This document shows, one piece after another, positions 877 through 3,648 of a stretch of DNA of 6,943 nucleotides. The notes under the pieces are model-generated. The model was given only the letters and a program-made list of their open reading frames with translations, was not told where the DNA came from and searched no databases. This stretch comes from a virus (Duplodnaviria > Heunggongvirae > Uroviricota > Caudoviricetes): IMG/VR virus record IMGVR_UViG_2657245112_000001. One strand, given 5' to 3'. Numbering within the stretch: position 1 is the first letter of the stretch; each line of letters starts with the position of its first letter. A program made the position numbers and the translations under genes.

Positions 877-1161
877 TTATTCATTGCCGATATTCACCTT
901 TATCGCGAACACCTTTACCGGTTTATCACCGAAGTGCGGATGTGTGATTGTCTTGATTTCATATCCGTCATACGGAACATCAATTCTGCGGCTGGAATCG
1001 TCGCGCTTCGGATATCCCTTTGTGATAATCAGGCGGTCATACTCCCGGAACATAATTCGCTTATTCCAATAGTCATTACACAGGCGATACTCTTCCGTTT
1101 TCTCTCCTCGAATCATGGCATCGAAGTATTCACCTTTGACGGCAAGTTGTAGGTTAGCCAC
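877..1161 (-). CDS. ASCH-domain-like protein, 94 aa
   Basis: Track ORF 877..1161. The start codon is GTG (1161-1159), preceded by AGGAGG with a 6-nt spacer. The motif G-E-K-T-E-E-Y-R fits the ASCH GxKxxExR signature. Overlaps the upstream gene's 3' end by 8 nt. Confidence 0.55.
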   Translation of the reverse strand: MANLQLAVKGEYFDAMIRGEKTEEYRLCNDYWNKRIMFREYDRLIITKGYPKRDDSSRRIDVPYDGYEIKTITHPHFGDKPVKVFAIKVNIGNE

Positions 1162-1456
1162 GGTTAACCTCCTGCGGAGTAGCCTTTACAAGCACTGGTG
1201 CAAATCCATCTTCATTAAGGTTATGAATATAGACTTCTGTTCTCCTGCGCTCTTCAACGTTTAATATTGTTTCTGGATCATAAACCCATACTTTCATTCG
1301 ACTATTCCATGAAGAAATCGCTTCAGATCTAGTTCGTTTTTCTGGTCCTTGGGCACCACATTTGCATGACACATAGCGCATTTTCCCTCTGATACTGAAT
1401 GAGTATCCGATGTTAAGCACAGTGGAACCACAGAATGGGCAGCGATATAGATTCAT
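1154..1456 (-). CDS. lar: Lar-family restriction alleviation protein (Lar/RalR-like zinc ribbon) with a C-terminal extension, 100 aa
   Basis: Track ORF 1154..1456. N-terminal half carries YRCPFCG ... CKCGAQGP ... EAISSWNSR, which resembles the Cys4 zinc-ribbon and WNxR motif of Lar-family proteins. The start overlaps the upstream stop as ATGA. Confidence 0.65.
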   Translation of the reverse strand: MNLYRCPFCGSTVLNIGYSFSIRGKMRYVSCKCGAQGPEKRTRSEAISSWNSRMKVWVYDPETILNVEERRRTEVYIHNLNEDGFAPVLVKATPQEVNRG

Positions 1457-2070
1457 AAATCATCCACCTTAGGCGCAGCTGAGACAGCAACATTCCAGAA
1501 CTCAGAAAACATATTGTATGCACCAGATAGATTGGAAGTAGCATACCCTCCAAGCTCACTTCTAATCTGAACGGCTCTCATCATTTCCGGGGTTAACTCC
1601 TTCGGCACCATAACCCAACCATCCGGAGTTACCGGAGAGTTGCCACCGGGAATATTTTCCGGAATATTTTGTTGTGCGTTTTGTGGTTGTTCTGATTTAC
1701 CCTGAAGCATGGCGGCGCGGCAGGCGTTCCAGCCAGCTGTTCGCCCAAGCGCGTAAACTTCAGATGGATCAAGATAATCAATGTCATGCCCGTCCTCATC
1801 GTCGTTCTCAGGTAATGCAGCAGGTACTACCGGTACTGGCGGAGCGGCGTAGACCTCAATAATTCCATTATCAATAGGCCATTCTCCATCCTTGAGGTAG
1901 TCACTTGTGCCGTCAACTTGCTGTTCTGCAATGTGGAATGCACCTATTGGTTTTGCTTCCAGCGATGCCAGAGCAATCCGTGCCAGTTCCATTTGTTCGC
2001 CACTAGTAAGTCCGTTATCAAGCGGGGATTTAATGAACAATTCGATACGTTCTTTAGTGATAGTGCTCAT
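1453..2070 (-). CDS. Hypothetical phage protein, 205 aa (start revised from the track)
   Basis: Track ORF 1453..2169 trimmed to the ATG at 2070-2068, which is preceded by AAGGAGAG (6-nt spacer) and lies immediately after the upstream gene's TGA. Acidic, proline-rich middle region. No family recognised. Confidence 0.7.
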   Translation of the reverse strand: MSTITKERIELFIKSPLDNGLTSGEQMELARIALASLEAKPIGAFHIAEQQVDGTSDYLKDGEWPIDNGIIEVYAAPPVPVVPAALPENDDEDGHDIDYLDPSEVYALGRTAGWNACRAAMLQGKSEQPQNAQQNIPENIPGGNSPVTPDGWVMVPKELTPEMMRAVQIRSELGGYATSNLSGAYNMFSEFWNVAVSAAPKVDDL

Positions 2071-2071
2071 A

Positions 2072-2629
2072 TCACTCTCCTTTGATGCGAATGCCAGCTG
2101 CGCTTGCTGATTCTTCATATGCGCGTTTAGCAGCGTTAAGGATTGCTGCCAGTGGCGTATAGCCGCCATCCATTCGGATTGTGTTGTGGATGCCAGCCAT
2201 TGTGTCGCGCAATTTGCTGTGGCTAGCAGACAGTTCTGCTATGCACTTCTCTGCGGCATCGGCTCGATCTTTTTCACGCTGGAACATTTTGTGAGTGCGG
2301 TCTATAGCTTCGATTCGTGCCGCTGATGTCTTCTGCACGGCTTCAAGCTCAACACGCAGCTTCCCAACCGTAAGAGCAATATCCTCGTTCTTCTGGTCGC
2401 GGCGTTTGATGTATTGCTGGTTTCTTTCCCGTTCATCCAGTAGTGCCAGCACGGTTTCTGGCCCGGTCAGAAATTTGAAGGCGTTGAGCGCATCAATATC
2501 CACACCGTAATCCTTAAGTTCCTGTTCAGTTAACAAATCATCATCAACTGGCAACATTAACAGGCGTTCCATTGCCGGAATTGCACGCTCTGCCGCCTCA
2601 CGCAGTGCCTGATAGTCAATCTTGCTCAT
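2072..2629 (-). CDS. Hypothetical coiled-coil phage protein, 185 aa; possibly Ead/Ea22-like (tentative, from memory of the N-terminal pattern and gene position)
   Basis: Track ORF 2072..2629. AGGAG sits 7 nt upstream of the ATG; the start overlaps the upstream stop as ATGA. The Ea22-like assignment is unverified. Confidence 0.7.
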   Translation of the reverse strand: MSKIDYQALREAAERAIPAMERLLMLPVDDDLLTEQELKDYGVDIDALNAFKFLTGPETVLALLDERERNQQYIKRRDQKNEDIALTVGKLRVELEAVQKTSAARIEAIDRTHKMFQREKDRADAAEKCIAELSASHSKLRDTMAGIHNTIRMDGGYTPLAAILNAAKRAYEESASAAGIRIKGE

Positions 2630-3183
2630 TGGATGACTCCTTTACGAAGCTGTTCGGCGATATCTTCGAGAACGCCATCAGAGAATGAACGGTCAAAATC
2701 GCCTTCCGGCGCATTGGCCATAAACTCAGTAGAGGTAAGAATCATCCGGGCAATATCAGCGGCGTTCTTCGCAGTATCATCAATAAAACCAGCTTCCCAG
2801 GCAGCCAGCATTCTGTTCGCCACAAAGTAAGCGCCCTCCTTGCGTGCTTCAGTCTTCACTTCAGCCAGAAAAGCATCGGTGGCTGGGGTTTCAGTAATAT
2901 CATCTTCCCATTCGCTAAACTCCTCACGACAAAAGTCATTAAATTCCTTCTCAGATTGCTTAAGCGAGGAATTTTCAGCAGCCATCTTCGCGCATTTAGC
3001 CTCAAGGTTATCAATCGTGATTCCAGCAGAACGACACTCCCGCAACGCCGTTTCTAGTTTTGATTCAAGTTCACCGAACTTACGGACAAGATATTCATCG
3101 TTTGTTTCGTCAACCTTTAAATCACTTGGGATGCATTTACCTTTCAGAAAACCATCCATCTCAATTAGTGTCATTTGTTTCAT
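2626..3183 (-). CDS. Hypothetical acidic protein, 185 aa (start revised from the track)
   Basis: Track ORF 2626..3201 begins at a GTG. The ATG at 3183-3181 overlaps the upstream small gene's TGA (3182-3180) as ATGA, so I take it as the start. Very D/E-rich. Confidence 0.7.
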
Positions 3184-3344
3184 TTCTTCCCACTCCGCCA
3201 CATCGCATTCAGATATTTGTTGTCATTAACAGAACCGAAACTCTTTCTCTTAAGCAATTCCTCTCTCGATGGCATTGGCTTTGCGCGTTGGCGAATAATC
3301 ATTTCTGCCGGAAGAATGCCGGGATTGTATGCAAGTCCTCTCAT
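3180..3344 (-). CDS. Small basic hypothetical protein, 54 aa ([54 protein letters not shown])
   Basis: Lower part of track ORF 3180..3494. ATG at 3344-3342 is preceded by GAGGAA with an 8-nt spacer. An alternative in-frame ATG at 3362-3360 (MTEEFT...) sits 2 nt before the upstream TGA at 3357-3355. The start is uncertain by 18 nt. Confidence 0.45.
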
Positions 3345-3354
3345 GGTAAATTCC

Positions 3355-3648
3355 TCAGTCATTACTGATAGCGCCATAGCGTGAGCGGTAATTACGCAGG
3401 CGCGGGTCAATTTCAGGGAAGTGGGTATATGTGGCTTTGCGGAATGGTCGGATTGATGTCTGGTAAATTCGCTCGCGTTCTTCTTTCTCTGCAAGCCATA
3501 TACAATGGCGAAATTCCTTTTCCTCTTTCGTTTCCTGCGGTAGCGACATTATCCGATCGTAGTTTTTTCTGAATTTATCCAGCACCTCCGATACGGAATT
3601 GCCGGAACAGCGGCGCGCGTCATCCGCACCATACAGAGGCGCTGGCAT
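3355..3648 (-). CDS. Hypothetical protein, 97 aa, immediately downstream of ssb
   Basis: Track ORF 3355..3648. ATG is preceded by TAAGGAT with a 7-nt spacer, 23 nt after the ssb stop. No family recognised; the size and position after the recombinase are reminiscent of P22 anti-RecBCD genes, but that is unverified. Confidence 0.65.

Follow-up and report, generated by a model that had tools for sequence, protein, structure and literature searches.

The question raised by this locus is whether seven closely packed genes of a caudoviricete virus form a functional unit of their own or belong to an arrangement that is already familiar. They occupy positions 877 to 3648 of a DNA stretch of 6,943 nucleotides (IMG/VR record IMGVR_UViG_2657245112_000001), which we analyzed at its full length and refer to as the window. 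An earlier note, made from the letters of the DNA, recognized a Lar-family restriction-alleviation protein and an ASCH-like protein among their products, left the other five unrecognized and proposed a translationally coupled counter-defense cassette. Our analysis points elsewhere: with a probability of about 85%, the region consists of early-left accessory genes that belong to a Shiga toxin (Stx) prophage of the lambda/P22 type and are freely shuffled, and is not a new or co-inherited counter-defense cassette. The five supposed unknowns turn out in sequence searches to be already named P22 or lambda genes or families: Pfam recognizes Abc2, DUF2737 and Ead_Ea22, and BLASTP finds relatives of P22 EaE, P22 EaA and lambda Ea22. 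The main result is hence an annotation correction, in which apparently unknown genes become the standard P22/lambda-type accessory arm of a prophage often sequenced in enterohemorrhagic Escherichia coli (EHEC).

Positions 1-6312 of the window are 100% identical to four Stx1a-converting phages, and patches are 95-97% identical to the CUS-3, HK97-like, mEp, HK022 and Sf101 phages. At least 80% of positions 600-3900 is carried by 116 complete E. coli genomes, mostly EHEC O26, O111 and O103; E. coli genomes with matches number 3774. In O26:H11 11368, the PGAP annotation (NC_013361) shows the region bordered at one end by an excisionase and an integrase, and at the other by erf, kil and cIII. The region belongs to a lambdoid Stx1a-converting EHEC prophage, of which it is the early-left (PL) arm, and its gene order matches that of P22 (erf, abc1, abc2, orf56, eaE, orf45, eaF, eaD, eaI, eaA, eaG, eaC, xis, int), with further synteny to HK446, HK75, Sf6, mEp213 and the exo-xis region of lambda. 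The initial placement of the genes in the accessory region that separates recombination genes from xis is therefore correct; this part of the early-left arm is nonessential.

Are the seven genes inherited together? All window proteins were used to search 80 IMG/VR loci, each with an Abc2 of at least 98% identity to that of the window; Abc2-positive IMG/VR loci number at least 572 overall. The complete set is present in 4 of the 80, all of them essentially identical to the window. Of these loci, 67 extend 2.5 kb or more downstream of Abc2; among them, a match to the EaE-like protein is found in 44, to the Ea22-like protein in 36 and to the EaA-like protein in 38, and the match covers at least 80% of the respective protein in 11, 16 and 17; Lar is found in 5 and ASCH in 15. 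Elsewhere, the three large proteins are mostly represented by N-terminal fragments fused to other C-termini. The same picture emerges from the DNA of 76 non-identical IMG/VR loci: coverage is 76 out of 76 over abc2 and the DUF2737 gene, declines along the EaE-like gene from 51 to 4 and along the EaA-like gene from 22 to 2, and stands at 2 over Lar and 12 over ASCH. Coverage is high at the junctions and at the 5' end of each of the three large genes, and over the 3' ends of these genes it is down to 2-5; recombination hence appears to exchange both whole genes and C-terminal domains, a pattern that matches the published mosaicism of Ea22 and the "boundary sequences" annotated in Sf6. By this co-occurrence check, the notion of a co-inherited cassette fails, as only Abc2 and DUF2737 are constant and the full set belongs to the window-type prophage alone.

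A dedicated, translationally coupled cassette whose acidic members are DNA mimics or nuclease inhibitors, acting jointly against restriction-modification and RecBCD, does accommodate some of the gene content: Abc2 targets RecBCD (PMC9836394), a Lar-family protein is present, the EaE/Oad2 family includes a proven inhibitor of OLD, two of the proteins are strongly acidic, and the locus has been called a likely "hotspot" of anti-immunity genes (bioRxiv 10.64898/2026.07.10.737580). We nonetheless regard such a cassette as quite improbable, given the lack of co-inheritance beyond a single prophage type, the recombination breakpoints inside genes and the developmental phenotype of Ea22. A counter-defense function is established for Abc2 and plausible for the EaE/Oad2-like and Lar proteins; it is as a seven-gene unit that the proposal does not hold.

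Nor does the packing of the genes set them apart. The list of open reading frames (ORFs) and direct measurement of the junctions confirm that all seven ORFs are present between 877 and 3648, consecutive and on the minus strand, as is every long ORF of the window. The reported ATGA stop/start overlaps are found at 3180-3183, 2626-2629 and 1453-1456, and the Lar and ASCH genes overlap by 8 nucleotides, again as described. The junction between the Ea22-family and EaA-like genes, given as 2 nucleotides, is in reality a 1-nucleotide spacer (TGAtATG), and abc2 and the DUF2737 gene are separated by 10 nucleotides. Each of the seven starts is preceded, 5-10 nucleotides upstream, by a Shine-Dalgarno-like motif. 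Tight packing had been taken to begin at 3648; it runs further upstream, where the erf and SSB-like genes overlap by 1 nucleotide, and coding on the minus strand extends from xis (1-157) to beyond 6070. Hence, the density is ordinary for a whole lambdoid early operon and not peculiar to the seven genes. A promoter scan found sigma-70-like sites to be rarer than in shuffled sequences, as would be expected of an operon whose promoter, PL, lies outside the region. On the minus strand, directly after the ASCH gene, lies a terminator-like hairpin followed by a T-run (854-875; a 9-bp stem with 5 GC pairs). Scanning the whole window at Rfam gathering thresholds returned no RNA family, and a repeat search found short chance repeats only.

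The first gene of the series, abc2 (3355-3648, minus strand), codes for a 97-residue protein that matches PF11043 over residues 1-97 of 97 (E 5.6e-63; 209.6 bits against a cutoff of 25) as well as phrog_656, aligns over its full length with PDB 8B1T (E 2.8e-57) and is 93% identical to P22 Abc2. Abc2 binds RecC and redirects RecBCD, and its Pro68 has been modeled in the active site of the host PpiB (PMC9836394); as read from the sequence, Pro68 is present in the window protein. A survey of lambdoid phages groups SSB, the strand-annealing protein (SAP) and Abc2 as one Rec module (PMC12315714). On that view, abc2 is the last gene of an Erf-SSB-Abc2 recombination module rather than a member of the accessory region.

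The gene that follows (3180-3344, minus strand) specifies a 54-residue DUF2737 protein (PF10930, E 2.3e-28; 98.3 bits against a cutoff of 25) with an isoelectric point (pI) of 10.7, which is 72% identical to P22 Orf56 and has a homologue in HK97 gp38. It follows Abc2 in 80 of 80 IMG/VR loci and in all 6 loci of a GTDB scan, whose pattern search finds close relatives only and whose loci include Shimwellia and Intestinirhabdus; the same holds for P22, HK446, HK75, Sf6 and mEp213. The spacer between the two genes is an identical 10 nucleotides in 63 of the 80 IMG/VR loci, and 16 of the 80 have an insertion of about 300 nucleotides homologous to HK446 gp29 and Sf6 gp24. The inserted gene (for example, 4805-5095 in locus L086 and 2072-2362 in locus L090) is annotated as a "replication initiation protein", resembles P2 Orf83 and is absent from the window. 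In the phage collection, 225 Abc2 records stand against 223 records of full-length DUF2737, with equal counts in the Stx phage groups, and the pairing persists where Abc2 is only 61-76% identical. DUF2737 is probably tied to Abc2. Shorter homologues corresponding to residues ~23-49 occur in Salmonella phage SE2 and about 426 other phage records, among virulent Jersey-like phages and Kagunavirus siphophages, and a search for Abc2 in these phage groups gave no match. In SE2, the DUF2737 gene (3441-3596) follows the lysis cassette in a stretch of small genes, and recombination genes are absent from its neighborhood. DUF2737 is accordingly not strictly dependent on Abc2, because in SE2 it occurs without Abc2 and outside any recombination context. 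Our literature search on DUF2737 returned nothing functional.

The third gene (2626-3183, minus strand) overlaps the DUF2737 gene by an ATGA, as in 52 of 52 related loci. Its product of 185 amino acids (pI 4.4; net charge -17) belongs to no Pfam family and matches phrog_614 (E 2.9e-79), P22 EaE (E 6e-72) and Oad2, the gp27 protein of HK446 (E 7e-51). Residues 1-60 are identical to HK446 gp27 at 56 of 60 positions, with 61% identity over 1-114; residues 1-113 are 81% identical to HK75 gp28, and residues 60-183 are 77% identical to P22 EaE. An invariant 11-residue core and a QLRKG tail are common to all four proteins. The C-terminal domain (~110-185) aligns with P22 EaE and not with Oad2, so that the active OLD inhibitor's C-terminal part, presumed to set specificity, is not matched. 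These alignments indicate that the protein is an EaE/Oad2-family chimera, made up of an Oad2/HK75-gp28-type N-terminus (1-60), the shared core and a P22 EaE-type C-terminal domain. According to a recent preprint, Oad2 binds and inhibits the abortive tRNase OLD of P2, which is triggered by phage interference with RecBCD; a relationship to P22 EaE and an occasional fusion of Oad2 to an Ead/Ea22 protein are also noted there (bioRxiv 10.64898/2026.07.10.737580). PHROG 14548, a profile of 378 positions, is matched at 2-197 by this protein and at 200-278 by the product of the next gene, which fits the Oad2-Ead/Ea22 fused forms of the preprint. As a member of the EaE/Oad2 family, the protein may plausibly counter a host defense.

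A more ambitious reading could be built on these neighbors. A conserved functional core would be made up of Abc2, DUF2737 and, from the EaE/Oad2-like protein, its N-terminal module, with DUF2737 as a so far unrecognized cofactor in the action of Abc2 on RecBCD; EaE, Ea22 and EaA would be modular adaptor anti-immunity proteins whose interchangeable acidic C-terminal domains each neutralize a different RecBCD-guarding host system, such as OLD variants, retrons or Gabija-like systems; and the chimera of the window would have a new target specificity. We offer this as speculation, and judge it unlikely.

The fourth gene (2072-2629, minus strand) codes for a second protein of 185 amino acids, which matches PF13935 (Ead_Ea22) over residues 2-131 (E 8.9e-30; 104.5 bits against a cutoff of 27) and whose alignment with lambda Ea22 runs from one end to the other (E 6e-26). 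Its Ea22-family core, LLDERERNQQYIKRRDQ.NEDIALTVGKLRVEL, is nearly identical to that of lambda Ea22. The loop HRYYGVGG, conserved between β3 and β4 of the lambda C-terminal domain, is absent, and the lambda-type α/β C-terminal domain is hence not matched; against PDB chains, at E<=1, the only match is an unrelated coiled coil. Ea22 is known as a mosaic, pro-lysogenic protein with variable acidic C-terminal domains (PMC10834534), and its phenotype is one of promoting lysogeny and not of inhibiting a nuclease (PMC7093339, PMC10834534).

This homologue bears on the possibility that the genes after abc2 are mainly developmental modulators of the lysis-lysogeny decision, of induction (including the oxidative-stress induction of Stx prophages) and of host physiology, rather than counter-immunity genes. 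Ea22 is pro-lysogenic in lambda and Stx phages, in which exo-xis genes affect induction (PMC7093339, PMC3824215, PMC4699033), and the downstream orf55 (637-804) encodes a protein 100% identical to lambda p35. However, no homologue can be detected in the window for orf60a, orf61, orf63, orf73 or ea8.5, the characteristic lambda exo-xis genes, and the EaE/Oad2-like and Lar proteins suggest immunity functions. A mainly developmental role is possible, if on the doubtful side, and the developmental and counter-immunity readings are not mutually exclusive.

The fifth gene (1453-2070, minus strand) specifies a protein of 205 amino acids (pI 4.25; net charge -18), named "Eaa protein" in databases. Its residues 1-80 are 54% identical to P22 EaA (E 6e-21), and residues 71-205 are 64% identical to Sf6 gp21, with an identical C-terminal domain (142-205). 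It has no Pfam match and lacks the DUF551-type C-terminal region found in some of its relatives. Among 1.84 billion representative proteins it has 2174 relatives, in which three segments (~1-87, 25-130 and 138-205) recur independently. The AlphaFold (AF2) model is weak (pLDDT 65.8, pTM 0.37) and shows, at this low confidence, an N-terminus that is helical, a further helix at 102-126, acidic linkers without order and, at the C-terminus, a helical module that is uncertain. From the alignments and the model, we describe the protein as a probable composite of an EaA-type N-terminus, an acidic and mostly disordered middle and the C-terminal module of Sf6 gp21.

The description of several of the unrecognized proteins as very acidic holds for the first 185-residue protein and the 205-residue protein and does not extend to the rest, Abc2 and DUF2737 both being basic. 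That the acidic proteins might be DNA mimics is not supported. Neither matches a characterized DNA-mimic or nuclease-inhibitor family, such as the Ocr, ArdA, Gam and gp5.9 types, in Pfam, PHROGs, PADLOC or PDB sequences. The acidic stretch of the 205-residue protein is predicted to be disordered in its low-confidence model, and Oad2 works by protein-protein binding to OLD. When the acidic 185-residue, Ea22-like, 205-residue and ASCH proteins are compared with PDB chains, only chance coiled-coil or weak matches appear, and PADLOC likewise finds weak coiled-coil matches and no relatives of defense systems.

The last two genes are those that had been named from the start. For the sixth (1154-1456, minus strand; 100 amino acids), the assignment to Lar stands: the protein matches TIGR03655 over residues 3-54 (58.7 bits against a cutoff of 39.6) and PF14354 (35.7 bits against 28.6), and is the only window protein named by the NCBIfam scan. 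It retains the four-cysteine zinc ribbon (Cys6, Cys9, Cys31 and Cys33), followed by a 47-residue C-terminal extension, and is 97% identical to Sf6 gp20 across all 100 residues. The Lar of the Rac prophage alleviates type I (EcoKI) restriction, according to King and Murray (1995) as cited in PMC4041452. When we looked for a RalA-like antisense small RNA, the matches to ralA were all short and attributable to chance, and none lay close to the Lar gene; hence no RalR/RalA-type toxin-antitoxin arrangement was found. Going by its family, the window Lar plausibly has a counter-defense role.

The seventh gene (877-1161, minus strand; 94 amino acids) begins with a GTG preceded by AGGAGG. The ASCH label fares unevenly: PF04266 matches residues 6-28 only, at 14.3 bits (E 0.068) and below the gathering threshold of 21.2 bits, and a profile of 28 homologues retrieves no ASCH chain from PDB sequences, while the predicted structure has an ASCH β-barrel fold together with the GxKxxExR motif. 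The structural model thus supports the protein being a small ASCH-fold (PUA-like) protein. A literature search on ASCH proteins in phage counter-defense found nothing functional.

How might such a set of genes work? We propose that in this lambdoid Stx1a-converting prophage the early-left (PL) operon is N-antiterminated and the region makes up its distal half, in which abc2 would end the recombination module and be followed by a local version of the P22 "ea" or lambda "exo-xis" accessory region. The seven genes would be transcribed together, yet each would be exchangeable as a unit of its own: through recombination at junctions and at the conserved 5' ends of genes, whole genes would be swapped, and so would the C-terminal domains of the three large coiled-coil/linker proteins. 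In function, the set would be heterogeneous. Abc2, by extension from what is shown for close homologues, would bind RecC and steer RecBCD to Erf-mediated recombination. For the EaE/Oad2-like protein, the probable role is to bind and block an abortive-infection effector, of the OLD type or another, by which manipulation of RecBCD is sensed, and the protein's variable C-terminal domain would set the target. The Ea22 homologue would bias the phage towards lysogeny, as in lambda and Stx phages; Lar, judging from its family, might modulate type I restriction or act like RalR; and the ASCH protein, judging from its fold, might bind RNA or modified nucleic acid.

Several points weigh against this account of the region as a shuffled accessory arm with familiar functions. 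Translational coupling is inferred from the geometry of the junctions only, and the functions are carried over from homologues and not from experiments on the prophage's own proteins. Anti-OLD activity cannot be assumed for the EaE/Oad2-like protein, because its middle region is closer to HK75 gp28 than to Oad2 and its C-terminal ~75 residues are of a third type, that of P22 EaE, unlike those of either protein; HK75 gp28, a 54%-identical homologue of Oad2, does not inhibit P2 OLD (bioRxiv 10.64898/2026.07.10.737580). The link to Oad2 itself comes from this one preprint (July 2026). "Restriction alleviation" is likewise not settled as the mechanism of Lar, since Rac Lar has also been described as RalR, the DNase toxin of a type I toxin-antitoxin system (PMC4041452). 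Finally, in NC_013361 PGAP flags the Lar, EaA-like and Ea22-like coding sequences as "incomplete; missing C-terminus".

These flags raise the prospect that prophage DNA in the middle of the region is undergoing decay, with the Lar, EaA-like and Ea22-like ORFs as truncated or fused pseudogenes and the junctions as accidents. The prophage copy in O26 11368 does have an IS600 insertion and other pseudogenes. Yet all seven ORFs are intact and preceded by Shine-Dalgarno motifs, the Lar ORF is gene 20 of Sf6, a viable phage, conserved over its full length, the C-terminal domain of the 205-residue protein is intact in Sf6 gp21, full-length ORFs are kept at 35-60% identity in other loci, and variable C-termini are normal for the Ea22 family, as published. 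Decay is thus highly improbable, and the comparison suggests that the "incomplete" flags are artefacts of matching these proteins to differently assembled mosaic references. In the same record (locus L001, 5055-6530), PGAP splits the Lar ORF into a "partial" Lar pseudogene and a 47-residue hypothetical protein. The reading as a freely shuffled accessory arm is the one that we retain.

The genes on either side belong to the same early-left arm. Upstream on the minus strand lie a gene for an SSB-like protein of 127 amino acids (3672-4055; phrog_44, E 6e-27; 95% identical to HK446 gp31) and erf, for the Erf-type single-strand annealing protein (4055-4660; 75% identical to P22 Erf; phrog_155, E 2e-57). 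The SSB-like protein occupies the position of P22 Abc1, matches the SSB PHROG with its C-terminal half only and ends in an SSB-like acidic tail, DDSIPF. Beyond erf, a 52-residue ORF (4762-4920, minus strand) is 90% identical to HK75 Gp33 and 87% identical to HK446 Gp33; it overlaps a second small ORF (4671-4841, phrog_1723) in the manner of mEp213 gp40/gp41. Gp33 is small and has been reported as a trigger of the OLD abortive system of P2; it is also a proposed new manipulator of RecBCD (bioRxiv 10.64898/2026.07.10.737580). Further upstream (5210-6070, minus strand) is a gene for a repetitive 286-residue protein rich in Glu, Ala, Lys and Arg, TolA-like according to PGAP, which causes an extreme AT skew (-0.6) and whose homologue in O26:H11 11368 has an internal stop. 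Identity to the Stx1a phages ends at 6312, leaving 6312-6943 outside. The plus-strand ORF at 6434-6739 looks truncated, because it matches a SieB-type superinfection-exclusion profile at positions 2-101 of 193 only, and PGAP annotates it likewise in O26.

Downstream of the ASCH gene, positions 625-880 form a 256-bp block that is 96.5% identical to lambda 29106-29361. It encloses the hairpin at 854-875, which corresponds to sequence just downstream of lambda ea8.5, and it is a junction that could act as a recombination site. Between xis and the p35 homologue, a segment of about 436 bp (189-624) is inserted relative to lambda. It contains orf114 (264-608, minus strand), a 114-residue gene of the HK022 p30 type (phrog_1229), with a terminator-like hairpin (204-189) at its downstream edge, which makes for a moron-like layout.

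Two small leads are worth recording alongside the corrected annotation: the invariant pairing of Abc2 with DUF2737 and, in the Oad2-family protein, a combination of domains that is new. The strict linkage of the former is a lead on the poorly understood redirection of RecBCD by Abc2. The latter, a chimera, is a relative of a newly described OLD inhibitor. More generally, the swapping of domains within genes supplies a natural panel of C-terminal variants for mapping anti-defense specificity. The induction of Stx prophages controls the release of Shiga toxin, and the region carries an Ea22 homologue, from a family linked to lysogeny and induction.

Set beside known systems, the region has in common with the abc-ea region of P22 its operon position, strand and order as well as the 10-nucleotide abc2-orf56 spacer; identity is 93% for Abc2, 72% for Orf56, 77% for EaE over its C-terminal two thirds, 77% for the core of EaD and 54% at the N-terminus of EaA. 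It departs from P22 in having the SSB-like Gp31 protein in place of Abc1, in lacking EaF, EaI, EaG and EaC, in the Oad2/HK75-type N-terminus of its EaE-like protein, in an EaA-like protein that carries the Sf6 gp21 C-terminal domain and no DUF551-type end, and in the addition of Lar and ASCH. With HK446, the shared features are the placement of the Oad2-family gene directly after DUF2737 with an ATGA overlap, the N-terminus, the core and the QLRKG tail, whereas the 21 extra middle residues of Oad2 are missing from the window protein. The Ea22 homologue resembles lambda Ea22 and the V1-V3 forms of Stx phages in its N-terminal MS.I..QALREAAE, its coiled-coil core and its last eight residues, AGIRIKGE, which are identical, and in its mosaic build with a variable C-terminus, as published (PMC10834534, PMC7093339); unlike lambda ea22, its gene lies beside recombination genes of the erf type and not of the exo/bet type. 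Genes 21-20 of Sf6 provide the same block of the C-terminal domain of the 205-residue protein and the 100-residue Lar, with the domain identical, Lar 97% identical and the 4-nucleotide overlap kept, but in Sf6 the domain is joined to an Ea22-type N-terminus, in the window to an EaA-type one, and Lar is followed by gene 19 in Sf6 and by ASCH in the window. Lar/RalR of Rac shares with the window protein the zinc-ribbon family (34% identity; CPFCG...C.C...WN.R) and the niche between recombination genes and xis; it differs in its length of 64 residues, against 100 with the 47-residue extension in the window, where Lar also has no rcbA neighbor. Descriptions of the region, its protein families and its mosaic behavior already exist for P22, lambda, HK97-like, Sf6 and Stx phages.

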